Assembly: GCA_000398025.1 (NCBI GenBank)
Contig: ASKX01000006.1
Location: 14,759 to 38,758 of the forward strand
Direction: 5' to 3'
From: Candidatus Paceibacter normanii SCGC AAA255-P19
Lineage (GTDB): Bacteria; Patescibacteriota; Minisyncoccia; Minisyncoccales; Paceibacteraceae
DNA: 24,000 nt
Below, piece by piece: positions 1,259 to 13,926 of this stretch. Each line of letters opens with the position of its first letter. The first letter of the stretch is position 1. Made by a program: the position numbers and the translations under genes. Below the pieces are notes generated by a model that was given only the letters and a program-made list of their open reading frames with translations, searched no databases and was not told where the DNA came from.

Positions 1259-1710
1259 TGATAATTAAAAAAATAATTATAACTTTTGTTCTCTTGGGTT
1301 CAATGAATTTTTTATTCATTTCACCTTCGAGTTTAGTTTCACCAGTTTTTAGTTTGGCTCAGGAAACTCCTAAGGTAATTGAACCCCCGGAAACAATGGA
1401 AGAAGCCAAAGAATTGGGGGAGAAAGCCTTGGAAACCACCCAAAAAGAGCTTCCCGGAATTTTAGAAAAAATCTGGGAAGAGGACGTGCTACCGATTTGG
1501 CAAAAGATGTATGATTGGTTTTTAACTAATATCTGGCCCCAAATTAAAAGTTGGTTTAAAAAAGAAGTGGAGCCGAGAGTCAAAGAGGAAGTAGAAAAAA
1601 GAAAGCCGATAATTGAAGAAGAATTCGAAAAAGAAAAAGAAAAATTAAAAGAAGAGATTCCAGAGGTAAGTAAATCTCTCTGGGAAAAGCTCAATGAATT
1701 AATAAGATAA
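1258..1710 (+). CDS. hypothetical secreted/membrane-anchored protein, K/E/W-rich
   Basis: 150-aa ORF. It has a hydrophobic N-terminal signal-like segment (IIITFVLLGSMNFLFISPSSL...SLAQE), then a charged helical-looking region. No family was recognised. Confidence 0.7.
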   Translation: MIIKKIIITFVLLGSMNFLFISPSSLVSPVFSLAQETPKVIEPPETMEEAKELGEKALETTQKELPGILEKIWEEDVLPIWQKMYDWFLTNIWPQIKSWFKKEVEPRVKEEVEKRKPIIEEEFEKEKEKLKEEIPEVSKSLWEKLNELIR

Positions 1711-1721
1711 TTCATTTCGCC
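1693..1721 (+). repeat. hairpin-repeat family copy (AATGAA subfamily)
   Basis: AATGAATTA / ataaga / TAATTCATT is a 9-bp perfect stem followed by TCGCC. The stop codon at 1708-1710 lies in the 3' stem half. Confidence 0.6.
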
Positions 1722-1794
1722 TTCGAATTCAAAGAATCAATAAAGTATGCAGCCGTTAGGGTAGGGAACTCTGGCGGTTTTTTGTTTTTCCATA

Positions 1795-1822
1795 TTGACA
1801 CCAATTGTTGATAGATTATGAT
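1795..1822 (+). promoter_or_regulatory. sigma70-like promoter for the RNA gene
   Basis: TTGACA (1795-1800), a 16-nt spacer, then TATGAT (1817-1822). The predicted start is near G1829. Confidence 0.55.
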
Positions 1823-1828
1823 GAAATT

Positions 1829-2035
1829 GGGAAAAGGTTGGGTTGCGCAAACGAGGCGCTAGTCCGGTTGATGAGCCCGACAAGGAAGACACCTCCTGGT
1901 AGGGACCCGAGACGCCTGTGGTGGAACAATGCGTGAGGATTCGCAACGAAGAATGAGCCGGCTCATATGCGGGGGCTCACATAGAGGCATCAGCGCACCT
2001 CCTTTCAATACCAGAAGCAACCCAACCTTTCTCCC
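1829..2035 (+). ncRNA. structured ncRNA of unassigned class; ends base-paired; 6S-like rod is possible but unproven
   Basis: This is a GC-rich island (about 60% in a sampled line) in AT-rich DNA. AAAGGTTGGGTTGC at 1833-1846 is perfectly complementary to GCAACCCAACCTTT at 2017-2030. Nested helices are GAGGCGCT 1853-1860 with AGCGC(AC)CTC 1992-2001, and TGAGCCC 1872-1878 with GGGCTCA 1973-1979. There is a palindromic hairpin ATGAGCCGGCTCAT at 1953-1966. No plus-strand ORF is present. Confidence 0.6.
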
Positions 2036-2139
2036 GGCCGTCATTATAGTTCCTTCCTAATTTTAGCCCTTTGTCAATTATCCTCGGCACAATGTTGCCG
2101 TAATTAGTGATCAAGCAATTGATCATATATGTATGTTTC

Positions 2140-2174
2140 GAGACACGTCCCTCTGGCCGTGTCTCTGTTTTTTT
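2140..2174 (+). terminator. rho-independent terminator
   Basis: GAGACACG (2140-2147), loop tccctctggc, CGTGTCTC (2158-2165), then TGTTTTTTT. Confidence 0.7.
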
Positions 2175-2210
2175 ATAGAGATAGATAGAGATAGTACGTA
2201 AGGGGAGAAC

Positions 2211-2238
2211 TTGACAGGTCTTTTTGGCCTGTTATTAT
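2211..2238 (+). promoter_or_regulatory. sigma70-like promoter upstream of the recombinase gene
   Basis: TTGACA (2211-2216), a 16-nt spacer, then TATTAT (2233-2238). This leaves a ~125-nt leader that contains a hairpin-family copy. Confidence 0.5.
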
Positions 2239-2314
2239 GAATATAGATAATGTCGGACAATGTAGGTAAAGCGACACTTTATATAGAGAAAAAAACCACT
2301 CCCCTAAAATTACT

Positions 2315-2340
2315 AAATGAAGCTAAAGCTTCATTTCGAC
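2315..2340 (+). repeat. hairpin-repeat family copy (AATGAA subfamily)
   Basis: AAATGAAGCT / aa / AGCTTCATTT followed by CGAC. It shares CTTCATTTCGA with the copy at 17631-17655. Confidence 0.6.
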
Positions 2341-2369
2341 CTGCGTTTTTATAAATAAAAACTTGGTAT

Positions 2370-3326
2370 ATGAAGAAATCAAACATCCCTATCATTAAAC
2401 ATATCCCTGATTTTTTAGATTATTGTGAAGTTGAAAAAGGTTTAGCAGATAGAACTCAGGAAAATTACCAGCACTATCTCCAAAAGTTTGTCTCCTGGCT
2501 CAAAAAGACCAAAAAAGAGACCCTATTACCCCATGAGCTTACGGCTGAGGATATTTGGGCTTATAGGCTATATTTATCTCGTTATACAAACGAAAAAGGC
2601 CGTCCCTTGAAGAAAGTTACCCAGAACTACTACCTTATCGCTCTGAGAGCCCTTCTGAGCTATTTTACAGCCAAAGACATAGATTCGCTCCCTGCCGATA
2701 AAATAGCCCTCCCAAAGGCTGATAGAGCCGAAAAAACGGTCAAATTCCTTAATTTAGAGCAGATTGAACGGCTTTTACTGGCTCCAAATACAAAGATGTC
2801 CCAAGGGCTTAGAGATAGGGCTATTTTGGAGTCTCTTTTCTCAACCGGCCTTAGAATAGCTGAACTGGTAGCTCTTAACCGGGAACAGTTTACAAATATA
2901 AAAGACAAAAAAGATTTAGAGCTTGGGATTATTGGCAAAGGAAGCCACCCCAGAACAGTTTACTTTTCTGAAAGGGCTCTTTCCTGGATTAAGAAGTATC
3001 TTGATACCCGCAAAGACAAAGACAAGGCCCTGTTTATCCATTACAGGGTCCGGGAAGACGCTGAAGCCCGTCTTACAGCCCGCTCCATAGAAAGGATTGT
3101 CAAAAAATACGCCATCTTGGCCGGCGTTCCTATATTTACTACTCCTCACACTCTTCGCCACAGTATGGCTACTGATTTGTTAACCCAAGGAGTTGATTTG
3201 CGAACCATCCAGGAATTTTTGGGCCACCGAAATATCGTTACCACTCAAATTTATACTCACGTCACAAATAAACGTCTCCGCGACGTCCACCGCCAGTACC
3301 ACAGCGGAAAGAATCTAAAGGAATAA
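2370..3326 (+). CDS. tyrosine recombinase, XerC/XerD-like
   Basis: 318 aa. It has an N-terminal SAM-like core-binding region and catalytic motifs in the expected order: R in TGLRIAEL, GKGSHPR, HTLRHS, LGHRN and IYTH. Confidence 0.9.
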   Translation: MKKSNIPIIKHIPDFLDYCEVEKGLADRTQENYQHYLQKFVSWLKKTKKETLLPHELTAEDIWAYRLYLSRYTNEKGRPLKKVTQNYYLIALRALLSYFTAKDIDSLPADKIALPKADRAEKTVKFLNLEQIERLLLAPNTKMSQGLRDRAILESLFSTGLRIAELVALNREQFTNIKDKKDLELGIIGKGSHPRTVYFSERALSWIKKYLDTRKDKDKALFIHYRVREDAEARLTARSIERIVKKYAILAGVPIFTTPHTLRHSMATDLLTQGVDLRTIQEFLGHRNIVTTQIYTHVTNKRLRDVHRQYHSGKNLKE

Positions 3327-3329
3327 AAA

Positions 3330-3351
3330 AGTCCTACCTGGAGATAGGACT
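3330..3351. terminator. hairpin between convergent genes; the T-run is on the minus-strand side
   Basis: AGTCCTA / cctggaga / TAGGACT. AAAAA at 3325-3329 supplies a U-run for the minus-strand 186-aa gene. Confidence 0.5.
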
Positions 3352-3375
3352 TAGGTTGTCCGAGATCGAGGAAAT

Positions 3376-3936
3376 CTAGAAAAGCTTAACCTTAACTAAT
3401 TCAGGACAGATGCCGGGAGGCGTATCATATATTCGAAGAGCCCTTTGTATTACGGCTATAAAGACCAGCGGAGGGTATTTCATTATTGAGTGAGTCTCCG
3501 TAAATCTTTTCTCCTTCTCATACCATGACCTTATTTCTTCTATAGCCTCCTTGACTGTCTTGTATTTGTCCGGCTCTTTTCCCTCTTCAGGACCAACAAG
3601 CCAGACTTTCCTTAATGGCTCGCGGATCGAGACGTAATGAGGAGAAAATCCATCGCCTAAGCGGTAGACAATCGTCCAGCGGATAAACTGCCACATACGT
3701 TTTTCAGGAATTCGTCTGAGGGAAAATCGAGCATTCTCGAATTCCCTCATGTCGTGCACCCTGCTAACGGCAAGGTACTGGAAGCAACGATGAGGCGACT
3801 TATCTGACAAACCTACTGACAGGGCTCCTCTTAGCCAAGGATAATTTTCCAGCAACCTCTCAAACTTAACCTTTTTCAATTTCCCTCCTTCGCCATATAG
3901 GCTTTTTATTGGAGTGATGGTTTCGGGCACGTCCAT
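3376..3936 (-). CDS. hypothetical protein (orphan, 186 aa)
   Basis: Long ORF with an ATG start, a consensus promoter upstream and a terminator downstream. No family was recognised. It contains an RFTETH (Rx4H) motif near the C-terminus. Confidence 0.75.
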   Translation of the reverse strand: MDVPETITPIKSLYGEGGKLKKVKFERLLENYPWLRGALSVGLSDKSPHRCFQYLAVSRVHDMREFENARFSLRRIPEKRMWQFIRWTIVYRLGDGFSPHYVSIREPLRKVWLVGPEEGKEPDKYKTVKEAIEEIRSWYEKEKRFTETHSIMKYPPLVFIAVIQRALRIYDTPPGICPELVKVKLF

Positions 3937-3973
3937 CGAAACCCATTGCTATAGAATATTTAGCAATATATTT

Positions 3974-4002
3974 ATTATATATATTTCTTTTTATTTTGTC
4001 AA
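3974..4002 (-). promoter_or_regulatory. consensus sigma70 promoter for the 186-aa gene
   Basis: On the minus strand: TTGACA (4002-3997), a 17-nt spacer, then TATAAT (3979-3974). The leader contains the hairpin ATTGCTA (3945-3951) / TAGCAAT (3961-3967). Confidence 0.6.
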
Positions 4003-4014
4003 TCAATAGCAAAA

Positions 4015-4041
4015 AACCGTTAGTTCCCCTAACGGTTTTCT
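4015..4041. terminator. bidirectional terminator-like hairpin between divergent genes
   Basis: AACCGTTAG / ttccc / CTAACGGTT is a 9-bp perfect stem, flanked by an A6 run on the left and TTTTCTC on the right. Confidence 0.55.
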
Positions 4042-4049
4042 CTCACCGA

Positions 4050-4097
4050 GCTTCTATTTATAGAAGCGAAGGTGGAAAAGAGAATTTATTCTCTTTG
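4050..4097 (+). repeat. double hairpin carrying the family's GCGAAGGTG module
   Basis: GCTTCTA/ttta/TAGAAGC (4050-4067) overlaps AAGCGAAGGTG (4064-4074), which is followed by AAGAGAA/ttta/TTCTCTT (4078-4095). AGCGAAGGTG is identical to the copy at 10091. Confidence 0.5.
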
Positions 4098-4221
4098 ACT
4101 AATCTATCAAATGTCGCACAATATTAGTGTGCCTGGATTTTTCTGTTTGGTAAGTGAAATAATCATTGGTTTTCTTTAAAACAAGCTCATAACGCAATTT
4201 TATACAAATTTTTGTAGCATC

Positions 4222-4252
4222 TTGACATACAGGTATGGTTTGCTAATATAAT
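4222..4252 (+). promoter_or_regulatory. sigma70-like promoter for the ATPase/Toprim pair
   Basis: TTGACA (4222-4227), then TAATAT (4244-4249, 16-nt spacer) or TATAAT (4247-4252). Confidence 0.5.
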
Positions 4253-4287
4253 GATAGGGTGTGGAATAATTAAAACATATAAAACAT

Positions 4288-5499
4288 ATGATTCATTCAT
4301 TCTCGTGTAAAAACTTCTATTCTTTTAACGATCTTACAACTGTCAGTTTTGTTGTAAATGAAAAGGCCCCTCATAACGAAGGTTATTTCCGAACTGAGTC
4401 TGGAAATAGGCTTTCCAAGGTCGAAACCGTTATCGGCCCAAATGCTTCCGGTAAAACCAATCTACTAAAAGTTTTACCTTTCTTGAAATGGCTTATCACT
4501 GGTTCGTTCGATCTCAAACCCTCAGATTTATTACCATTTAAACCGTTCCTTTTTGCTAGCAATGATAACAAAACAACCGAAATTTCGGCCGATTTTGAAA
4601 TTAAGGGAGATGTTTTTACTTATAGTTTTAATGTGAGTAGAGAAAGAATCATTTCAGAAGAATTAAAGGTAAGGAATAAAACTAACGAAAAATTAACAAG
4701 TAAAAAAGTGTTTTCTCGCTATTGGAATAATAAAAATGAAAAATATGAATTAGATGATAACAGCTTTAATCTCCCTAAAGAATTTGAAAATTCAATGCGT
4801 GCCAACGCCAGTATCGTGAGCGTAGCTGTTCGGTTTAATCATAAAGAGAGCCAAAAGATCTTCGATTACTGGCAAAAAATAGAAACTAATGTGATAGAGG
4901 CTGGCTGGATTGGCGACAGTCTTTTGCCTAATGCAGTAAAACAGCTAATAGAAACATTTGATTTTTACAGTGAAAACGAAATTGTTAAAAAAGAAGTGGA
5001 TAAATTATTGTCACGTTTTGATCTTGGTTTGGAGTCGTTCGATATTAAAAAAGAAAAAAAAGGAGATGAATTTTCAATAAGTATAAATGGTATCCATACT
5101 TTTGGTGGACAAAAAGATTATCGTCTCCCGATACAATATGAATCATCTGGCACAAAACAGCTTTCCGTTTTATCTAAATCTATTCTTTTAGCATTAACCA
5201 ACGGAGGGATGGTTGTTGTTGATGAATTTGATGTTAATCTACATCCAGAAGTGGTATTGACTCTGGTTGAATTATTTATCCATCAAGAAACTAATCCACA
5301 TAATGCTCAATTGTTGTTTAGCGCCCACAGTCATCGAGTTTTAACTAGGTTGGATAAATACCAAATCGTACTTACTGAGAAAAACGAGAAAGGCGAAAGC
5401 GAAGCGTGGCGTTTGGATGATGTGTCAAATGTTAGAACTGACGATAATTATTACGAAAAATACATCACTGGCGCATATGGAGCCGTACCCAAGCTATAA
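4288..5499 (+). CDS. AAA_21/ABC-type ATPase (AbiLi / RloA-like)
   Basis: N-terminus MIHSFSCKNFYSFND. Walker A is GPNASGKTN, the signature-like region is ESSGTKQLS, Walker B is MVVVDEFDVNLHP, and the H-loop is FSAHSH. Confidence 0.85.
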   Translation: MIHSFSCKNFYSFNDLTTVSFVVNEKAPHNEGYFRTESGNRLSKVETVIGPNASGKTNLLKVLPFLKWLITGSFDLKPSDLLPFKPFLFASNDNKTTEISADFEIKGDVFTYSFNVSRERIISEELKVRNKTNEKLTSKKVFSRYWNNKNEKYELDDNSFNLPKEFENSMRANASIVSVAVRFNHKESQKIFDYWQKIETNVIEAGWIGDSLLPNAVKQLIETFDFYSENEIVKKEVDKLLSRFDLGLESFDIKKEKKGDEFSISINGIHTFGGQKDYRLPIQYESSGTKQLSVLSKSILLALTNGGMVVVDEFDVNLHPEVVLTLVELFIHQETNPHNAQLLFSAHSHRVLTRLDKYQIVLTEKNEKGESEAWRLDDVSNVRTDDNYYEKYITGAYGAVPKL

Positions 5500-6022
5500 T
5501 CGCCAAAAACAAAAGAAATATCGTAGTAAAAAAACTGTTTTTTTCTTCGGCGAGGGACCGGGAGAAACGTTTTTTTTGAAACATTTGCAATCTTTATATC
5601 ATTACTCTAAGTTAACATTCATAAGAATTGTAACTGGTAGAAGAGGTACTGCCGACGGAATCGTTATCGATGCAAGTAAAATGGGTAATTACGATAAGAA
5701 GGTTGTTATTCTGGATAATGACAAGCCGCAAAAAGAAATGGAAGAAGCAAGACGGGAAGCAAAAAATAGAAATATCGAGCTAATTGAGAATACTCCTTGT
5801 CTAGAACATATGCTGTTAACAATTTTGTCGGATGCAGATGGGAAAAATTTAAAAAGTTCAACACAGTATAAAAAAAATTTTGAATCCAAATATATGGATA
5901 GGAAAAAACGAAGGGAGTCAAGTGAATATACAAAGTTATTCCCAAAAAAATTACTAAATGAAAAGAGGGAAAAAGTTAAAAATTTAAATAGGATAATTTC
6001 AATAATGAAAAGTGGTAAATAG
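5477..6022 (+). CDS. RloB-like / Toprim-fold protein (AbiLii-like)
   Basis: VFFFGEGPGETFFLKHL (EG..E), VVILDNDKP (DxD) and NTPCLEHMLLTIL match the RloB pattern as I recall it. I chose the ATG at 5477, which overlaps the ATPase stop by 23 nt. The ORF-track start at 5417 is less likely. Confidence 0.8.
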   Translation: MEPYPSYNRQKQKKYRSKKTVFFFGEGPGETFFLKHLQSLYHYSKLTFIRIVTGRRGTADGIVIDASKMGNYDKKVVILDNDKPQKEMEEARREAKNRNIELIENTPCLEHMLLTILSDADGKNLKSSTQYKKNFESKYMDRKKRRESSEYTKLFPKKLLNEKREKVKNLNRIISIMKSGK

Positions 6023-6035
6023 TGCATTGTCCGAT

Positions 6036-6110
6036 AAAAAATAAAAACTGCCCAGCGATGGGCGTTTTATTATCCCCTACTCCGCACAATATGCCTTGTA
6101 GGACATTAAA
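6036..6110 (+). repeat. direct-repeat copy 1, containing the terminator hairpin GCCCA-gcga-TGGGC (6050-6063) plus a T-run
   Basis: aaaataaaaaCtgcccagcgatgggcGtttta ... tgtaggacattaaat. The partner copy is at 7226-7295. Confidence 0.7.
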
Positions 6111-6153
6111 TTAGGTTTCGAATCCTATCCCCAATTAGTTGAGATTAAAATGA

Positions 6154-7149
6154 TTACCACAAAGATATACTTTCTATAAAATTAAAATCTTCAACCTCTT
6201 TAAAATGCTCTGATAAACCTTCTGAGTTATGGTAAGTATATTTTGCCCCAAACTCATTATCGGCATTAAATAAATCAAGAAGATATCGCTGATCGCATGC
6301 CCAACACGATTTATCATCTATATTATATGAAACTATGTATGGTGTAGGATCATTGCTGATAATTTTGTATTCTATATAATTTCCGCAATTTATCTTGTAT
6401 TTTCTATTATCATGAAGGTTGATTATTTCTCTTTCTTGCGTTTGTCCACCCCAGTTATAATTAGCTATATTTAAATCGTGTTCTGTTAAATCATGTTTTG
6501 GCATAACCCATTTCACGTAATATCCGTTATCAAACCCTATTATAATTGGGTAAATCCAGACACAATGATTAAAATTACACACACTCCATTCTGTAATAAG
6601 TTCGTTTTTTCCGTCTGAGTCAATATCTCCTATATGTGCTTGGGTTAATAATAGAGGCGCCCTAAAAGATCCCTCTTCTTCTATGTAGGTTTGGTCCAAG
6701 GCCAAAGGGATAAGTTTATAGACTAATTCATAATCTCGAGTCGCGGGATTAAAGTCGTAAAAAAGAATTCCAGAATAGGTGTCTGGGAAAGTTTCGGGTT
6801 CTCTCGCACTAAACCACCCGGCATGTTCGAAATAATCAAAGTTTTGAATCAGAACTATCCTTGTTTCATATTCAGATCCGGTTAATTCTTTAGTTTTAAT
6901 TTCCTTCTCCTCTAACTCATTGGTTAAAAATTCATAGCGAAAAATTAAATCTCTGCTAAGCATTTTCTGATATTGCGAGTAATCCTTATAAAAATCCCAT
7001 ACAAAGTTAACAGAAAAACCAATCACTATACCAATAATAAGGGAAATTAAAATTTTATTGCTGAAAATTTTTTGAAATTTCATAATCCGTTCTTTTCCCT
7101 TTAAAAATATTTGCCTTACTTTAATTTTATATTTTGTAAAATCTTCCAT
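6154..7149 (-). CDS. hypothetical membrane-anchored protein with a DxDxDG (FG-GAP/VCBS-like) motif
   Basis: 331-aa ORF with an N-terminal TM segment (ILISLIIGIVIGFSVNFVW) and GDIDSDGKNELI. An alternative start at 7083 (MKFQKIF) is possible. The gene is AT-rich. Confidence 0.75.
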   Translation of the reverse strand: MEDFTKYKIKVRQIFLKGKERIMKFQKIFSNKILISLIIGIVIGFSVNFVWDFYKDYSQYQKMLSRDLIFRYEFLTNELEEKEIKTKELTGSEYETRIVLIQNFDYFEHAGWFSAREPETFPDTYSGILFYDFNPATRDYELVYKLIPLALDQTYIEEEGSFRAPLLLTQAHIGDIDSDGKNELITEWSVCNFNHCVWIYPIIIGFDNGYYVKWVMPKHDLTEHDLNIANYNWGGQTQEREIINLHDNRKYKINCGNYIEYKIISNDPTPYIVSYNIDDKSCWACDQRYLLDLFNADNEFGAKYTYHNSEGLSEHFKEVEDFNFIESISLW

Positions 7150-7225
7150 AAATTTTCTTCAACTTCGGGCTAAATTTTAGCTATTTCTACTTTCAGAATA
7201 GCCCCGATTTTTAGAAAATTCAAGG

Positions 7226-7295
7226 TAAAATAAAAATTGCCCAGCGATGGGCTTTTAGCATAAACGTCGCTTTACATAGACTGTAGGACCCAAAT
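7226..7295 (+). repeat. direct-repeat copy 2 (hairpin GCCCA-gcga-TGGGC at 7239-7252)
   Basis: aaaataaaaaTtgcccagcgatgggctttta ... tgtaggacccaaat. It has the same orientation and internal spacing as copy 1. Confidence 0.7.
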
Positions 7296-7330
7296 AAGCT
7301 TTTAACTCCTGAAGCTACGCAGTGCGACGT

Positions 7331-7357
7331 AAAAAACCGCCCTCTTAAGAAAACGGT
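7331..7357 (-). terminator. rho-independent terminator of the VIT gene
   Basis: The minus strand reads ACCGTTTTCTTAAGAGGGCGGT (a hairpin with G-U pairs) followed by TTTTTT. Confidence 0.55.
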
Positions 7358-7414
7358 CAGAACGAACTCCGCTGGCTGGACGATTTTAGATTTGAATAAA
7401 GAGTGTCGTTTTTA

Positions 7415-7897
7415 TTAACTAAGAGTCGCAACCCAATCACCAATACAACGAGTAATGATAACAACTAAAATAGCAATGGAAATGTGTTCTAAAATAACCC
7501 AGTGGGGCTTTTGCTGTTGTTGTCTAGCAATATAGAAACTAAAAATTCCAATTGAAAATAACCCCCATAATACGCTAATGATAATTGCCGTAGACAGCGG
7601 AAGAATTAAAATTGGTATGACAAAAGTTAAAGCAACGACAAATTTAGAAAGCAAAGTGGAAATAGTTGATTCCCAGATTTCCCTTTGAGTGCGTTTTTCC
7701 TCTGACTCCTGTGAAATATGAATCCCCAAAGCGTCAGAAAGCGCATCGGCGACTGCGATAAACAAAATACCTCCCATAACCACTATTTTTGAATGAGTGC
7801 CCGAATGTAATCCCACCATCAATCCCAAAGTAGTAATAATTCCTGAAGTTAAGCCGAAACTAAAGCCGATTTTAAATGACTGTTTGATATTGAGCAT
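7415..7897 (-). CDS. VIT1/CCC1-family (iron/manganese transporter-like) membrane protein
   Basis: 160 aa. GLTSGIITTLGLMVGL and AVADALSDALG blocks, a central acidic loop and C-terminal TM helices are typical of short VIT-family proteins. Confidence 0.8.
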   Translation of the reverse strand: MLNIKQSFKIGFSFGLTSGIITTLGLMVGLHSGTHSKIVVMGGILFIAVADALSDALGIHISQESEEKRTQREIWESTISTLLSKFVVALTFVIPILILPLSTAIIISVLWGLFSIGIFSFYIARQQQQKPHWVILEHISIAILVVIITRCIGDWVATLS

Positions 7898-7903
7898 TTT
7901 TCT

Positions 7904-7912
7904 ATTCTACCA
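7904..7912 (-). promoter_or_regulatory. extended -10 (TGgTAGAAT) six nt from the VIT ATG, implying a leaderless mRNA
   Basis: The minus strand reads TGGTAGAAT agaaaa ATG. Confidence 0.45.
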
Positions 7913-8015
7913 AAAAAACCGCCTAATTGGTAATTTTGTTACTCTTTGCGCCTCATTCATAGATTGGACGCCCATCGCCAGCTTCACGGCGGGAAAAACT
8001 TAATGAGCCTGCTGT

Positions 8016-8046
8016 TAATAAAAAGCAAGGGTCAAAAGGCCCTTGC
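8016..8046 (-). terminator. rho-independent terminator of the 77-aa gene
   Basis: The minus strand reads GCAAGGG ccttttga CCCTTGC followed by TTTTTATT. Confidence 0.65.
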
Positions 8047-8054
8047 CAAATGTG

Positions 8055-8288
8055 CTAATGTCCTCTCCCTCCACAGCATGAAAAACATAAAACACTTGCA
8101 CAGAACGCCGCATCTCTTTCGTTCGTAAAGGCAGCGTAATCAATACCTTCAGCAAATCCGCCACGCTTCGCAATTATAGGCTCACCTTGCAGAGTTGCCT
8201 GAAAAGTATCTTTACGCCACTCTTCTTCTGAAACCTGTGCTGGATGTACGTTGATTTCCGGCCCTCTATCAACAACAAAAATATTCAT
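8055..8288 (-). CDS. hypothetical small protein (77 aa) with a Cys-rich C-terminus
   Basis: ATG start preceded by AAGGAGG with a 9-nt spacing. It has its own promoter-like TTGACC-16-TAAACT (8353-8326) and its own terminator. Its GC is higher than its neighbours. The tail is CASVLCFSCCGGRGH. Confidence 0.65.
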   Translation of the reverse strand: MNIFVVDRGPEINVHPAQVSEEEWRKDTFQATLQGEPIIAKRGGFAEGIDYAAFTNERDAAFCASVLCFSCCGGRGH

Positions 8289-8373
8289 CCTGCCTATCCT
8301 CCTTGTCTTCTGTAAGATTAGTCTCAGTTTATCAATTTTAAAAGAGAGGTCAAGGATTTATTTCGGTATGTAA

Positions 8374-9219
8374 TTACCGAAAAAGTATACCAGCTTCTTC
8401 AATTAATGGATATAAGGATTTTTGAGATATTTTGAATTTTTTGGCGAATTTTTGAGGATCAATTTTTAATACGTCTTTGGCCAGCATTATTTTTTCTGAA
8501 ACAAAAATGTCTTTTAAGTATCCTTTTAGGGATGGTAAAATAGTTACAGGATAAAGCCCTTCTTTTTCTATTAAATTCTCCAGACCCTCTTTTTTGGGAT
8601 ATCTCCAGCCCAAAAGCTCAATTCCTGAACATCGAGAATAAGCAATAGCCCGATTGGTAAATTTTGTATTGGTAACCATAATGGTTTTAATCTGGGAATT
8701 CTGGTATTTCTTTGATTTGAGATATTTTCCTTTTAAGATGTCTTGGAAACGAGCCTGGTTAGCTAAGACTTCTTTGGAATGAACTCTTTCTCCTGGCAAA
8801 TTTCGGTATTTACACTCCCCTACATAAACTAGTTTATTCTTTTGGGCCAGGAAATCTGTTTCGTAGCTAGAAAGGCAAAAGCCTGGAAGATATTGATTAA
8901 TTTTCACTCGGAAACCTTGCTTTTTGAAGATTTCCCCAATATATTTTTCAAAAGGAAAGCCCGTCGGCCCCAATTTTCTCATTCCGGCTTTCAAAGAGAA
9001 CCTTAAAGCAGATTTTGGGGTTCTTCGGGAAAGTATTTTTTTGGCTTTTTTATAAATTTCAAAGGTTTTGATTCCAGGAAAAGCTTCATTGCTAATGATT
9101 TTGGCAATTTCTTTGGCTAAAGAGGGTTTAGCCCCAGCCCTTCTGGCTGAATTATATACCTTATCAAAAGAAAACGGCTCTTTCTCTCCCTTTGAGTTAA
9201 CTACATAAAGAGGGCTCAT
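8374..9219 (-). CDS. ATP-cone domain fused to a Mrr-like PD-(D/E)xK restriction-endonuclease-fold domain
   Basis: The N-terminus YVVNSKGEKEPFSFDKVYNSARRAG...TFEIYKKAKKIL fits the ATP-cone pattern. The central FEKYIGEIFKKQGFRV...ETDFLAQKNKLVYVGECKY fits a D...E-x-K nuclease core. Confidence 0.8.
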   Translation of the reverse strand: MSPLYVVNSKGEKEPFSFDKVYNSARRAGAKPSLAKEIAKIISNEAFPGIKTFEIYKKAKKILSRRTPKSALRFSLKAGMRKLGPTGFPFEKYIGEIFKKQGFRVKINQYLPGFCLSSYETDFLAQKNKLVYVGECKYRNLPGERVHSKEVLANQARFQDILKGKYLKSKKYQNSQIKTIMVTNTKFTNRAIAYSRCSGIELLGWRYPKKEGLENLIEKEGLYPVTILPSLKGYLKDIFVSEKIMLAKDVLKIDPQKFAKKFKISQKSLYPLIEEAGILFR

Positions 9220-9245
9220 TTTTTTTCTTTAACCTTATTATCCAT

Positions 9246-9267
9246 CCGATATGAGTACCGATATGAG
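9246..9267. repeat. tandem direct repeat CCGATATGAG-ta-CCGATATGAG in the nuclease gene's upstream region
   Basis: Direct reading. The repeat lies 27-48 nt upstream of the ATG at 9219 on the minus strand. Confidence 0.6.
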
Positions 9268-9337
9268 ACTATGTAACAAAACCTCTTAATAAACGTCATA
9301 ATTTTAAGGGAAGGAAACTAAAAGACGTGTCTTTTGT

Positions 9338-9376
9338 CCGCTCCAACATCCAATTAGGCAGGAGCGGTTTTTCTTT
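9338..9376. terminator. terminator-like hairpin just beyond the uppS stop
   Basis: CCGCTCC (9338-9344), a 16-nt loop, GGAGCGG (9361-9367), then TTTTTCTTT on the plus strand. On the minus strand a second small hairpin and a U-rich tract follow. Confidence 0.5.
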
Positions 9377-10070
9377 AGTGGCCAAATCTCCGGCTGCGCC
9401 GGTTATATTCTTCTATTGCTTCATCTAAATCCTTTTCGGTAAAGGCTGGCCAGTATTTTTTAGGAAAATAGAGTTCAGAATAAGCCCCTTGCCAAATAAC
9501 AAAATTAGAAAGCCGCCGCTCCCCGCCTGCCCGAATAATCAAATCTGGGTCGGGCAGGCCAGCAGTAGAAAGATGCTGACTAATTAAGTCTTCAGTAATT
9601 TTTGAGGCAGGGATTTTCTTTCTAACAATCTTTTGAACTGCCTGAGTAATATCCCACCTGCCACCATAACTTATGGCTAAGTTCAATTGAAGATCTTTAT
9701 TATTTTTAGTTAAGTTCTCAATCTTAACAATGGCTTTTTGGAGGGACTTGGGCAATCTTTTTTTTTGGCCAATTATCTTTACCTTAACTTGATATTTTTG
9801 GATGTCTTTGACATGCTTTTTGTCAGAAATGCCCCTTTCCAATAATTTCATTAAATAGATCACCTCTCTTTTTGTTCTATCCCAGTTCTCAGTTGAAAAC
9901 CCAAAAGCGGTCAAAACTTTCACTCCTCTTTTTTGGCACCACTGGCAAAATTTAAGTAAATTTTTATAACCTTCCCAATGGCCTTTTAAAGTTGGCAATC
10001 CCCTTTCTTTGGCCCAGCGCCGATTACCATCGGGAAATAAAACAATATGAATTGGAATTTGTTTCTTCAT
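9375..10070 (-). CDS. uppS: undecaprenyl-diphosphate synthase (cis-prenyltransferase)
   Basis: IVLFPDGNRRWAKERG, GFSTENW and IRAGGERRLSNF motifs. I chose the start at ATG 10070 (MKKQIPIH). An in-frame alternative ATG at 10121 lies inside a hairpin-repeat copy. The ORF-track start at 10187 is unlikely. Confidence 0.9.
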   Translation of the reverse strand: MKKQIPIHIVLFPDGNRRWAKERGLPTLKGHWEGYKNLLKFCQWCQKRGVKVLTAFGFSTENWDRTKREVIYLMKLLERGISDKKHVKDIQKYQVKVKIIGQKKRLPKSLQKAIVKIENLTKNNKDLQLNLAISYGGRWDITQAVQKIVRKKIPASKITEDLISQHLSTAGLPDPDLIIRAGGERRLSNFVIWQGAYSELYFPKKYWPAFTEKDLDEAIEEYNRRSRRFGH

Positions 10071-10275
10071 AAACCAAGCTTTTATAATGTGAAAGCGAAG
10101 GTGAAGATGAAGGAACTTCATCGCCTCCCCTTTCGACTCTAATTGGCGCCTTCTCTTGCTGCCGGGCCGTAATGAAACCGGCAGCAAAAGAAAGCAAAGA
10201 GATTAAAATAACTCCAATTAGTAAAATTATATCATCTAAATGGCATTGGACAAATTCTTTAATTTTTGCTAGCAT
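10024..10275 (-). CDS. possible small membrane protein whose C-terminus is encoded by a hairpin-repeat copy
   Basis: It has an ATG start and a strongly hydrophobic helix (IILLIGVILISLLSFAAGFI). The tail GGDEVPSSSPSLSH is the repeat read in frame. It overlaps the uppS 5' end by 47 nt. This call is weakly supported. Confidence 0.3.
   Translation of the reverse strand: MLAKIKEFVQCHLDDIILLIGVILISLLSFAAGFITARQQEKAPIRVERGGDEVPSSSPSLSHYKSLVYEETNSNSYCFISRW
10091..10125 (+). repeat. hairpin-repeat family copy (GATGAA subfamily, reference copy)
   Basis: GAAAGCGAAGGTGAA, then GATGAAG / gaa / CTTCATC, then GCC. Confidence 0.75.
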
Positions 10276-10282
10276 AATATAT

Positions 10283-10555
10283 ATGGCGAAGACAAAAGCA
10301 GCTGGTGCTACAAAATTAGGCAGAGACTCTCAACCAAAATATTTGGGTGTTAAGCTATTTGGGGGCCAGAAGGCTCTTGTTGGCCAGGTTTTAATTCGCC
10401 AGCGAGGAACTAAATTTCTTCCCGGAAGAAATGTCAAAAAAGGCAGCGATGACACTTTATACGCTTTGAAGAAAGGGGTAGTTCGCTTTCAAACCAAAAG
10501 AAAAAAAGGTTTTGATGGTTCTCAAAGAATAGCTAAAATTGTTAACGTCGAGTAG
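10283..10555 (+). CDS. rpmA: 50S ribosomal protein L27
   Basis: MAKTKAAGATKLGRDSQPKYLGVKLFGG...IRQRGTKF. The start at 10283 lies 7 nt after TGcTAGCAT and is probably leaderless. The ORF-track start at 10172 is rejected. Confidence 0.93.
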   Translation: MAKTKAAGATKLGRDSQPKYLGVKLFGGQKALVGQVLIRQRGTKFLPGRNVKKGSDDTLYALKKGVVRFQTKRKKGFDGSQRIAKIVNVE

Positions 10556-12164
10556 TAGCCACCCGGATAAACTCTCTGAATAATGGATGCGGCCTGAGGG
10601 GCCGCGATTTAAATTCGGGATGAAATTGAGTAGCCACAAAAAAGGGGTGTTTGGGGATTTCGATTATCTCAACAAGGTCTTTTTCTGGGTTTGTCCCGGC
10701 CATAACCATACCTTTAGCTCTCAGGGTCTCTCTAAACTCGTTATTTAGCTCGTAGCGGTGCCTATGACGCTCAGAGACATTAGAACGACCATAGACCCTA
10801 AAACTGGCTGTTTTGGGCCTAATTTGGCACTTGTAGGCACCTAACCTCATCGTTCCTCCGTATTTTTTCTCTTTTAGAAGGTTTTTTTGCTCGGGCATGA
10901 CATCAATCACCGGATATTTACAATCAGGAACAAACTCAGTAGAATTGGCCCCTTTCAACTTACAAACATTTCTGGCAAATTCTACTACTGCTAATTGCAT
11001 CCCTAAGCAAAGTCCCAAGTAAGGGATTTTTTGTTTTCGGCAAAATTCAATAGCTTTAATTTTGCCTTCCACTCCCCTGCTGCCAAAACCTCCAGGAACA
11101 ATTATCCCATCATATTTTTTTAGCTCTTTAAGCTTTTTGGGGTCTTTCTCATAATCTTCAGCTCCCAGCCAATAAATCTCGGGTTTTCTTTTATAAAACC
11201 AGGCAGCGTGTTTTATAGCTTCAATTACGGAAATATAAGAGTCCGCTAAAGTAAACTTGCCTGTCTCAAAATATTTTCCCACCATACCAATCTTAACTGG
11301 CTTTTTGGCCGTTTTAATTGTTTTGACCAATCTTTGCCAATCTTTTAAATTGTGTTTTCTTGTTTTCATTCCAAACTTTTTTAATATTCGGCTCCCTAAA
11401 TTTTCTTTTTCGAAATTAACCGGTATCTCATAAATTGATTCAATATCGGGAGCAGAAATAACGTTTTCTTTGGCCACATTACAAAAAACAGAAATTTTCC
11501 TTTTTCTAGGTTCATCTAAAGGAACCCGAGAACGACCCAAAATAATATCTGGCTGAATACCAGCCTCATTTAATAGTCTAACTGCTGTTTGGGTTGGTTT
11601 TGTTTTCATTTCGCCAATCATTTCCGGGATTGGCAAATAAGTAACCAAAATAAAAACAACATCTTTTGGTTTCTGCAATCTCAACATTCTGGCTGCTTCC
11701 AAAAAGAGGAGGTTTTGATACTCCCCAACTGTCCCGCCAATCTCAATTAAAACAAAATCAGCCTTAGTTTCCTTGGCTGCTTTATTAATTCTACTAATAA
11801 CTTCGTTGGGAATGTCGGGAACGACTTCCACACAACGACCCCCATATTCTAAATTTCTTTCCCGGTGAACCACGGTCTCATAAACTCGGCCGGTAGTCAT
11901 GTAATTTACTCGAGAAAGGTCTTCATCTAAAAATCTCTCGTAATTCCCGACGTCCTGGTCGCACTCATCTCCGTCATCAGTTACAAAAATTTCCCCATGT
12001 TCTATGGGGTTCATGGTTCCAGCGTCGACATTGATATAAGGGTCAATTTTTACTGCCGTGGCCCGAAACCCTTTACTTTTCAAAATTCTTCCAATGGAAG
12101 CCACCGCCACTCCTTTACCGATGCCGGACATTACGCCACCAGCAACAAATATATAACGTGCCAT
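10542..12164 (-). CDS. pyrG: CTP synthase
   Basis: 540 aa. N-terminus YIFVAGGVMSGIGKG, and a C-terminal glutamine amidotransferase domain with GLCLGMQ and HRHRYE. Confidence 0.97.
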   Translation of the reverse strand: MARYIFVAGGVMSGIGKGVAVASIGRILKSKGFRATAVKIDPYINVDAGTMNPIEHGEIFVTDDGDECDQDVGNYERFLDEDLSRVNYMTTGRVYETVVHRERNLEYGGRCVEVVPDIPNEVISRINKAAKETKADFVLIEIGGTVGEYQNLLFLEAARMLRLQKPKDVVFILVTYLPIPEMIGEMKTKPTQTAVRLLNEAGIQPDIILGRSRVPLDEPRKRKISVFCNVAKENVISAPDIESIYEIPVNFEKENLGSRILKKFGMKTRKHNLKDWQRLVKTIKTAKKPVKIGMVGKYFETGKFTLADSYISVIEAIKHAAWFYKRKPEIYWLGAEDYEKDPKKLKELKKYDGIIVPGGFGSRGVEGKIKAIEFCRKQKIPYLGLCLGMQLAVVEFARNVCKLKGANSTEFVPDCKYPVIDVMPEQKNLLKEKKYGGTMRLGAYKCQIRPKTASFRVYGRSNVSERHRHRYELNNEFRETLRAKGMVMAGTNPEKDLVEIIEIPKHPFFVATQFHPEFKSRPLRPHPLFREFIRVATTRR

Positions 12165-13839: not shown

Positions 13840-13853
13840 AAAATAAAGTTTAG

Positions 13854-13926
13854 TGCCCCCTGTAGGACTCGAACCTACAACCTTGTCCTTAAAAGGGACC
13901 TGCTCTACCAATTGAGCTAAAGGGGC
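13854..13926 (-). tRNA. tRNA-Lys (anticodon UUU), no encoded CCA
   Basis: The minus strand folds as GCCCCTT TA GCTC AATTGGTA GAGC A GGTCC CTTTTAA GGACA AGGTT GTAGG TTCGAGT CCTAC AGGGGGC A. This is a full cloverleaf with a 7-bp acceptor stem (one G-U pair). Confidence 0.9.

Follow-up and report, generated by a model that had tools for sequence, protein, structure and literature searches.

The stretch analyzed here (the window) comprises 24,000 nucleotides (nt) of contig ASKX01000006.1 of Candidatus Paceibacter normanii SCGC AAA255-P19 and contains a GC-rich island between the gene for a 150-amino-acid (aa) protein and the gene for a tyrosine recombinase. An earlier reading of the letters alone (hereafter the sequence-only reading) had taken this island for the gene of a non-coding RNA of no known class, equipped with a promoter and a terminator. 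We found a conserved family of such genes with covarying helices, and these comparisons indicate that the island is a genuine non-coding RNA gene and is transcribed separately. The gene is likely derived from a ribosomal RNA (rRNA) operon (rrn) and furnished with a boxA tail, and we lean toward the fuller reading that the locus is a stand-alone RNA gene descended from such an operon, a "mini pre-16S RNA". Its elements in the window are listed below, where names beginning with L denote related loci.

1795-1822, plus strand: sigma-70-type promoter, TTGACA-16-TATGAT, 11/12 consensus matches, start predicted near G1829
1829-1846, plus strand: purine-rich 5′ strand of the closing helix, from folding and family covariation, in the position of the 16S leader strand
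1847-2016, plus strand: GC-rich interior, hypervariable in the family, with two CACCUCCU motifs and the inner helices of the sequence-only reading
2017-2035, plus strand: pyrimidine-rich 3′ strand of the closing helix, from folding and covariation, in the position of the trailer strand
2047-2060, plus strand: boxA-like copy 1, UAGUUCCUUCCUAA, the more degenerate copy, family matrix rank 11 of 47,974
2064-2077, plus strand: boxA-like copy 2, UAGCCCUUUGUCAA, with G2, C5, U6, U7 and U8 as in rrn boxA and the top family-matrix score
2085-2100, plus strand: hairpin H2, CGGCA-CAAUGU-UGCCG, at a fixed distance 3′ of boxA, with covariation
2108-2125, plus strand: hairpin H3, UGAUCAA-GCAA-UUGAUCA, from folding, with homologous hairpins in L004, L005, L006, L023 and L066
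2140-2174, plus strand: intrinsic terminator, with an 8-bp GC-rich stem (2140-2147/2158-2165), a 10-nt loop containing CCUCUG, and a U-run to 2174

Most of this anatomy had been recognized in the sequence-only reading, and it held up when re-examined. The promoter TTGACA-16-TATGAT is present at 1795-1822 as described, with 11 of 12 consensus positions matched. GC content reaches 0.59 in 100-nt windows at 1851-2000, compared with 0.21-0.53 upstream of 1750 and 0.26-0.37 at 2101-2450. The two ends pair perfectly over 14 base pairs (bp; 1833-1846 with 2017-2030) with pair probabilities of 0.9-1.0, and beyond a single A-C mismatch (1832/2031) the helix reaches 1829/2034. Folding likewise predicted the hairpins at 2085-2100 and 2108-2125 and the terminator, which our consensus terminator scan missed, its loop limit being 3-8 nt compared with the 10-nt loop here. 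The boxA region is single-stranded in the predicted fold. The inner helices proposed at 1853-1860/1992-2001 and 1872-1878/1973-1979 and the palindrome at 1953-1966 fared less well. Their Watson-Crick pairs are present, but ViennaRNA assigned the first two a probability of only ~0.1 (the palindrome ~0.6), and a fold forced to hold the inner helices reached -71.6 kcal/mol vs -77.4 kcal/mol for the minimum free energy structure. Taken alone, the 206-nt fold is marginally better than shuffled sequences (z = -1.95; 3/200 as good); the case for an RNA beyond chance expectation is made by the pairing evidence from the family.

The only open reading frames (ORFs) of >=50 aa here are two on the minus strand (1737-1946 and 1859-2044), which had been regarded as artifacts of the GC island. 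This view was borne out in that neither is conserved. Among the members of the family, no ORF is conserved on either strand: frame, length and sequence differ, and L029 lacks any. The 61-aa minus-strand ORF had no homologue among 5.8 billion proteins and no Pfam match. A type I toxin mRNA or other small ORF was considered in view of an AGGAGG-N7-ATG on the minus strand (~2003-1987), but was rejected since the ORFs are not conserved.

The family was assembled from 103 related loci gathered via the 137-150 aa protein encoded upstream. At least 28 of these 103 loci carry an RNA gene in the same slot, between the 137-150 aa gene (hyp137) and a housekeeping xer gene with a dif-like site, and 24 distinct sequences were obtained when the window copy is included. 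In many of the other loci, the hyp137-xer gap is only 90-160 nt. Carriers of the element include the metagenome-assembled genomes with contigs MNWE01000011, CAYWKA010000005, JAQUAA010000008 and CAZYNZ010000065. All members inspected share the promoter, the closing helix, a tail motif, a small hairpin after the tail motif, and an intrinsic terminator. The promoter consists of TTGACA and a TATAAT-like -10 hexamer, 5-9 nt 5′ of the helix, in the first 12 members and is near consensus in most further members as well; weaker -10 hexamers were seen in L015 and L029. A purine-rich 5′ end pairs with a pyrimidine-rich 3′ end over 10-19 bp, and the tail consists of one or two copies of YAGYUCYUUNACAA followed, 11-13 nt on, by a covarying hairpin. 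Hairpin H3 is common to the subfamily nearest the window. The core enclosed by the closing helix is 74-239 nt long, and its interior (~40-200 nt) is unalignable between subfamilies, with a GC content of 0.48-0.66, compared with mostly 0.2-0.5 in the DNA around the window copy. No locus shares the window interior, as judged by BLASTN against all loci and by a protein search with the spurious ORF; over its last ~40 nt, however, the window copy is 83-89% identical to L004 and L006. Members have diverged past BLAST detection while their promoters stay near consensus.

Searches against Rfam agreed with the earlier view that the RNA belongs to no known class. The window RNA had no match at gathering thresholds, a permissive scan of 1700-2300 returned nothing relevant, and 12 member loci had no match at E <= 1. 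An additional 5′ domain, closed by a helix of the GGGAGGGA.../...UCUCUCCU type, precedes the main helix in L007 (3760-3950), L056 (~2000-2030) and L089 (866-929) and looks like a tandem duplication of the helix module.

Because full-length MAFFT alignment mis-registers the 5′ ends of the members, we assessed covariation by comparing duplex energies of cognate and non-cognate strands and by a structure-guided table. Cognate strands of the closing helix pair with a mean energy of -25.3 kcal/mol vs -16.1 kcal/mol for non-cognate strands, and none of 10000 permutations was as good. In the structure-guided table, most closing-helix positions show two or more Watson-Crick pair types with A-U/G-C exchanges, and RNAalifold detected double changes in 5 of 9 pairs despite the poorly registered alignment. 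Hairpin H2 behaves in the same way: there are 14 distinct 5′ arms, located 11-13 nt from boxA in most members, and cognate arms pair at -6.9 kcal/mol vs -2.3 kcal/mol for non-cognate arms (0/10000 permutations as good). Compensatory changes, on which the sequence-only reading had staked its RNA assignment, are therefore evident in relatives for both the closing helix and H2 by the measure of duplex energy.

The tail motif resembles boxA, the NusB/S10 antitermination signal of rRNA operons. Its G, C, UU and A are invariant, and one further C is nearly so. In the NusB-NusE-BoxA structure, 8 nt are recognized, with significant roles for G2, C5 and C6/U6, and the Aquifex boxA is GGCUCCUUGGCA (PMC3177189); the family motif agrees with these positions and with the Aquifex sequence. 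It also has the general build of a boxA, with G2, C5, Y6, U7 and U8, then (A)ACA(A), in a region predicted to be single-stranded. In E. coli rrnH, boxA reads ACTGCTCTTTAACAATTTATCAG in the leader and TTTGCTCTTTAAAAATCTGG before 23S, and the L101 tail, TGCTCTTTGACAATTTCTCG, is identical to the rrnH leader boxA at 17 of 20 positions by manual count. The gamma-proteobacterial consensus GYTCTTTAANA (PMC5725501) was matched with <=1 mismatch in 8 of 21 tails and with <=2 in 16 of 21, a 32-fold enrichment over the remaining 840 kb of the loci on both strands. A family weight matrix built without the window sequence ranked position 2064 of the window first of 47,974 and position 2047 eleventh. At its key positions, the tail motif matches boxA, which is the assignment we propose from these sequence comparisons. 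TTGACA/TTTACA-like words within boxA raised the prospect of a second promoter in the tail, a candidate we rejected since no member has a correctly spaced -10 hexamer.

Several members also retain sequences resembling the ends of 16S rRNA. In L012, an alignment with E. coli 16S 1484-1540 extends through the trailer as far along as UCACACAG (the scores are 49 and 75; 0/300 shuffles as good), with CACACAG directly 5′ of its closing-helix 3′ strand. L005 aligns with E. coli 16S 7-66 (0/300 shuffles as good), and L007 contains an exact AUCACCUCCUUA. For summed family scores, the 16S 3′-terminal window was the best of 76 windows (z = 3.9). The interior of the window copy has CACCUCCU at 1890-1897 and again at 1996-2003, where it extends to CACCUCCUUUC (1996-2006). 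This extended sequence matches the 16S-end GAUCACCUCCUUUCU at 12 of 15 positions, and 1 of 500 shuffles was as good. In E. coli, the leader sequence ATCAGACAATCTGTGTG is complementary to the trailer sequence CACACAGATTGTCTGAT, which follows the 16S 3′ end. Helices of this kind flank rRNAs and need >17 bp, and 23S is preceded by a boxB-boxA-boxC set of its own, the second in the operon (PMC10250234). The closing helix, which covaries and measures 18 bp in the window copy, corresponds in position to the 16S leader-trailer (RNase III processing) helix, to judge from its sequence context.

The simplest account of the order promoter, helix, 16S remnants, boxA, hairpin and terminator is an rRNA operon in which 16S has been cut down to its ends and the downstream genes have been lost. 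The 16S body would have disappeared, leaving inside the helix a GC-rich, fast-evolving stub that in several members appears to keep ~30 nt from the start of 16S and ~55 nt from its end, AUCACCUCCU among them. Compensatory changes in both helices, near-consensus promoters and a GC-rich interior in AT-rich reduced genomes suggest that selection is still acting, and we consider it rather probable that the gene is maintained by selection on the locus itself. Gene conversion from a real rrn operon could, however, mimic both the compensatory changes and the promoter conservation.

A working model of the gene can be outlined. The sigma-70 promoter would drive a ~345-nt transcript (1829 to ~2174), the first ~207 nt of which would be closed by the 18-bp helix joining the 5′ and 3′ ends of this domain. 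After the helix, the transcript would present two single-stranded boxA copies, a hairpin at nut-like spacing, a second hairpin, and the terminator. NusB-S10 would load on the two boxA motifs while the transcript is still emerging, the closing helix would be a substrate of the RNase III type, and the RNA would presumably be made abundantly. The product might then imitate nascent pre-16S rRNA and, as a decoy or regulatory mimic, titrate antitermination and 16S-end maturation factors, which would buffer ribosome synthesis. We offer this decoy mechanism tentatively and regard it as less probable than the rrn origin of the gene. Equally speculative is its wider form, in which an ultra-small clade of Patescibacteria would have kept a ghost rRNA operon as a working regulator that passes for nascent pre-16S rRNA by virtue of its tandem boxA, its 16S 3′ tail and its leader-trailer helix, and soaks up NusB-S10, RNase III and 16S-end maturation factors. 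By analogy with 6S RNA, such an RNA might conceivably set the rate or the quality control of ribosome production as a 6S counterpart for the rRNA machinery in place of the RNA polymerase holoenzyme, an idea we hold with similar reserve.

Several observations weigh against descent from an rRNA operon or against a continuing role. The RNA gene is absent from ~70% of the related loci. The collected loci contain no rRNA gene, and the 16S reference was that of E. coli. The 16S-like pyrimidine motif does not keep one position throughout the family and, taken member by member, mostly falls short of significance, and the longer alignments of the window copy to the 16S 3′ end are weak (29/300 and 78/300 shuffles as good). 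Each boxA copy of the window has three mismatches to the gamma-proteobacterial consensus by manual count, and the consensus scan gave none within two. Moreover, it is not obvious what boxA would antiterminate from its place 3′ of the structured domain, with a strong terminator only ~90 nt further on. The window copy belongs to the family by virtue of synteny, promoter, closing helix, tail matrix score and its 83-89% identity to L004 and L006 in the final ~40 nt. Finally, G-U pairs do not separate the two strands; since they are uninformative, the assignment to the plus strand was made from the promoter, boxA and terminator.

The strongest competitor to a maintained mini pre-16S RNA is a functionless, decaying relic of a second rRNA operon whose flanks appear conserved through recency or gene conversion (concerted evolution). 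The hypervariable length and sequence of the interior, the different 16S remnants kept by different members, the absence of the element from ~70% of loci, and the L002 slot, occupied by a defense reverse transcriptase instead, are all as decay would leave them. Yet promoters remain near consensus in nearly all members despite divergence past BLAST detection, compensatory changes are seen in the closing helix as well as in H2, and the interior stays GC-rich (0.48-0.66; window flanks mostly 0.2-0.5). The genomes are, in addition, only ~0.65 Mb in size, which counts against a relic because reduced genomes tend to shed dead DNA. We therefore regard a relic as unlikely. Less probable still is a cis-acting leader, in which the promoter and the boxA/nut-like site would load Nus factors and partial read-through of the terminator into dif and xer would provide a second, conditional way of expressing xer. 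The RNA gene does lie directly 5′ of xer, in the same direction, in every member found, boxA-hairpin-terminator-gene is the classic layout of processive antitermination (lambda nutR; PMC10250234), and AGGGGAG (2201-2207), which only a read-through RNA would contain, is complementary to CUCCCCU (2299-2305). But xer has a strongly conserved promoter of its own, and most relatives possess xer while lacking the RNA gene. The terminator, too, is a strong one that has been conserved, and a cis-acting leader leaves the large closing-helix domain unexplained. Real rrn operons end at intrinsic terminators, so a complex of the rrn antitermination type should not simply run past one.

C-rich small RNAs (sRNAs) of Gram-positive bacteria repress translation by pairing with mRNA Shine-Dalgarno sequences, and exposed CCUCC/CACCUCCU motifs could in principle let the present RNA act in trans in the same manner. 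CACCUCCU occurs twice in the window RNA and three times in the 24-kb window vs 0.36 expected, and many members have similar motifs. We nevertheless hold such an anti-Shine-Dalgarno sRNA to be highly improbable: the place of the motif is not conserved, the motif is not always present (L004 and L006 have CUUCC or UUUCC) and is partly paired in the predicted folds of the window RNA, and the best-conserved parts, helix and boxA tail, would go unused. Least credible of all are the functional readings first put forward from sequence alone, namely a 6S-like rod or an integration target or partner of the tyrosine recombinase. They drew on the paired ends and ~200-nt size of the window copy, on the adjoining recombinase, and on the variation of the slot near dif between genomes. 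The 6S reading failed for want of any 6S covariance match (E <= 10 in the window; E <= 1 in 12 member loci) and because the core ranges over 74-239 nt with an unconserved interior and no conserved central bubble; models of RNase P, signal recognition particle (SRP) RNA and transfer-messenger RNA (tmRNA) gave no match either. What had been called a recombinase-bearing module is a housekeeping XerC/D-like gene with a dif-like site, syntenic in relatives without the RNA. The proposed co-occurrence of the RNA with this gene broke down, given that ~70% of loci have xer without the RNA. As for integration, within window positions 1600-12000 we found no direct repeat of 1790-2180, no second copy of the RNA 3′ end and hence no att-like duplication. 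Nor does the interior show genome-specific similarity or complementarity to dif of the kind expected if RNA and recombinase acted together: the longest common substring of RNA and dif averages 5.67 within genomes (self) vs 5.73 across genomes (cross), and duplex energies are -15.9 vs -16.5 kcal/mol. As far as these sequences indicate, the RNA gene is neither target nor partner of the recombinase.

Other candidates for the identity of the RNA gene were tried and set aside. A guide RNA for Xer of the bridge-RNA type was rejected since self and cross matches to dif are equal and xer often occurs without the RNA. The window RNA contains strings like those of RNase P helix P4, GAGGCGCUAGUCCGG (1853-1867) and ACGAAGAAUGAGCCGGCUCAU (1946-1966), where we take the P4 consensus to be GAGGAAAGUCCGG for conserved region I (CR-I) and ACAGAANCCGGCUUA for conserved region V (CR-V). 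These CR-I/CR-V-like strings are not conserved in relatives (L004, L001; L004 has AUCCAGU), Rfam gave no match, and we judged them a coincidence. SRP RNA and tmRNA were dismissed for lack of any covariance-model or ARAGORN match, and Y RNA for lack of a model match and of a TROVE/Ro gene among the Pfam matches of window ORFs of >= ~125 aa. An attC-like or other DNA inverted repeat was rejected because the GTTRRRY/RYYYAAC-like strings stand in the wrong order and the orientation of promoter, boxA and terminator points to RNA. A scan of viral contigs with the helix-plus-boxA pattern yielded 10 matches, none with the family architecture, which speaks against a phage origin.

If the mini pre-16S RNA reading is correct, the gene would represent an undescribed RNA family made wholly of recognizable rRNA-operon parts, minus the rRNA, and nature would have supplied in it a minimal substrate on which the leader-trailer helix and boxA could be studied by themselves. 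We came across no description of such an RNA element in our literature searches, and it is absent from Rfam 15. The parts themselves (rrn promoter, leader-trailer helix, boxA) are known; their assembly into a mini 16S-like RNA gene appears to be undescribed. The reading would carry boxA/Nus biology into the candidate phyla radiation and into non-coding RNA, a class that the boxA survey explicitly excluded (PMC5725501), and would raise the idea that organisms with a single rrn operon may control ribosome synthesis by an RNA decoy. Even as a mere relic, the locus would be a record of an ancestral rrn operon beside dif and a caution for automated discovery of non-coding RNAs in GC-rich islands of AT-rich genomes.

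The RNA gene of the window is flanked by gltX, the gene for the 150-aa protein of unknown function, and the gene for the XerC/D-like tyrosine recombinase, and the remaining genes are those of an ordinary chromosome (dnaK/dnaJ/grpE, pyrG, L9, L27, uppS, ftsQ and mur genes). The homologues found for the 150-aa protein are patescibacterial, several of them labeled Candidatus Nealsonbacteria. In all three relative loci with called genes, the order is murC-ftsW-murG-gltX-hyp137-[RNA slot]-xer, and the hyp137-[gap]-xer arrangement recurs among further related loci. The order kept in three relatives marks xer as a syntenic housekeeping gene and not as part of a mobile module. The sole Rfam match in the window at gathering thresholds is a tRNA-Lys at 13854-13926 (13853-13926 by ARAGORN). 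The features adjoining the RNA gene are as follows.

1751-1779, plus strand: terminator hairpin of the upstream 150-aa gene, sequence conserved in relatives, loop GGGUAGGGAAC
2211-2238, plus strand: promoter of xer, its own and separate from the RNA promoter
2251-2275, plus strand: dif-like imperfect palindrome, conserved in related loci
2370-3326, plus strand: XerC/D-like tyrosine recombinase gene, by homology

The loop of the 150-aa-gene terminator (1751-1779) contains GGGTAGGG, oriented toward dif, which presumably matches the E. coli consensus of FtsK-orienting polar sequences (KOPS), GGGNAGGG. The dif-like palindrome, TGTCGGACAATGTAGGTAAAGCGAC, lies directly 3′ of the xer promoter (2251-2275) and has counterparts in roughly half of the related loci; its central 6 nt differ between genomes. 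We take this placement of a dif-like site beside its own recombinase gene to be comparable to the XerS/difSL and XerH/difH systems. Another dif-like site, degenerate and inverted, lies at 7266-7289 of the window, 79% complementary to 2252-2275 and with an exact right arm, TAAAGCGAC. The two sites (2252-2275 and 7266-7289) bracket xer, a 186-aa ORF, an AbiL pair and a 331-aa ORF, and the inverted site might be the trace of an old inversion or the edge of an insertion. An inverted left dif arm (ATTGTGCGACAT) also precedes the conserved terminator hairpin in L001, L007, L008, L012, L015, L020, L023 and L047, not in the window, so that in those eight loci the variable slot is flanked by inverted Xer-arm-like sequences. 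The AbiL-type defense pair 3′ of xer (4288-6022) comprises AbiLi (E = 1e-71) and AbiLii, for which the Pfam names are AAA_21 and RloB. In L002 (CP061210, a complete Nealsonbacteria genome), the slot at 4557-7191 instead holds a UG21 reverse transcriptase (E = 5e-89) and a PDC-S42-like protein. The dif/xer neighborhood is a region that varies between genomes.

Smaller features were noted around the same slot. In L015 (2886-3067) and L020 (~2960-3140), a small ORF with two CxxC pairs, MEESNNETYKKISVECAVCKTKFELW...CPVCKILEELEK, a possible zinc ribbon, is inserted ahead of the RNA gene and separates it from the 137-aa gene. Short intergenic palindromes resembling repetitive extragenic palindromic (REP) sequences or miniature inverted-repeat transposable elements (MITEs) occur in the window at 1711-1741 and 2316-2342 (TTCATTTCGCCTTCGAATTCAAAGAATCAAT; AAATGAAGCTAAAGCTTCATTTCGACC), one of them inserted within the xer 5′ region, and have copies in L004, L015, L017, L020 and L022. 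The complementary AGGGGAG (2201-2207), 5′ of the xer -35 hexamer, and CUCCCCU (2299-2305), in the xer 5′ region, co-vary in some relatives, such as L012 with GGAGGGG/CCCTCCCC. In relatives the downstream arm also stands opposite the AGGAGGUG Shine-Dalgarno sequence (e.g., GGAGGUGAAACCACUCCCCC in L005), and the paired arms around the xer promoter and 5′ region may form a translational switch. The surroundings of the xer start codon (2355-2378) are 92% alike to those of the minus-strand ORF 9375-10187 (uppS; 10062-10085), sharing ATAAAAACTTGGTATATGAAGAAA. The uppS copy lies ~100 nt inside the listed TTG-start ORF, whose true start may be the ATG there.

Comparison with known systems places the mini pre-16S RNA among several partial likenesses. 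Intervening sequences (IVSs) of fragmented 23S rRNA are hypervariable, GC-rich inserts of ~100-200 nt with a long 5′/3′ helix cut by RNase III. The RNA gene shares with them the hypervariable GC-rich insert closed by such a helix; an IVS, however, lies inside a functional 23S gene, whereas the mini RNA has a gene to itself, complete with promoter, boxA and terminator. Rcd RNA is a small RNA made from a promoter inside ColE1 cer in plasmid dimers and is likewise encoded beside a Xer recombination site. Unlike the mini RNA, it has no rRNA-like features, and between the mini RNA and dif lie a terminator and a second promoter, with no sign in the sequence of a link to Xer. The tail recalls lambda nut in having a single-stranded boxA followed by a small hairpin at a fixed short spacing, 5′ of a terminator. 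In nutL and nutR, boxA and the boxB hairpin are separated by an 8-9 nt spacer, compared with 11-13 nt from U8 in the RNA family. In contrast to lambda, no gene for an N-like protein lies near the RNA gene, the hairpin sequence is unconserved and thus offers no GNRA-like boxB loop, and the host of the RNA gene is not a phage, the viral scan having been negative.

The closest likeness is to the flanks of rrn operons themselves. Common to both are a strong promoter, a helix of >=17 bp around the position of 16S, a boxA after the trailer as upstream of 23S, and a terminal intrinsic terminator. Some members also have a 16S 3′ end of the AUCACCUCCU type just 5′ of the trailer strand, and the similarity of L012 to E. 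coli takes in 16S 3′ end and trailer together. The RNA gene differs from a real operon in lacking the 16S body (~40-200 vs ~1500 nt) as well as 23S, 5S and tRNA genes, and we noticed no boxA between the RNA promoter and the helix, without having searched systematically. Its boxA is often tandemly duplicated, it adjoins dif/xer, and its flanks are conserved and its interior variable, the reverse of a real operon. In sequence and structure it does not match 6S RNA, having no conserved central bubble and a variable size, and the parallel with 6S RNA is one of working principle: both would be promoter-driven, rod-like RNAs, made abundantly, that titrate the transcription machinery by mimicking one of its nucleic-acid substrates. 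Whereas 6S RNA mimics open promoter DNA, the mini pre-16S RNA would mimic nascent pre-rRNA.

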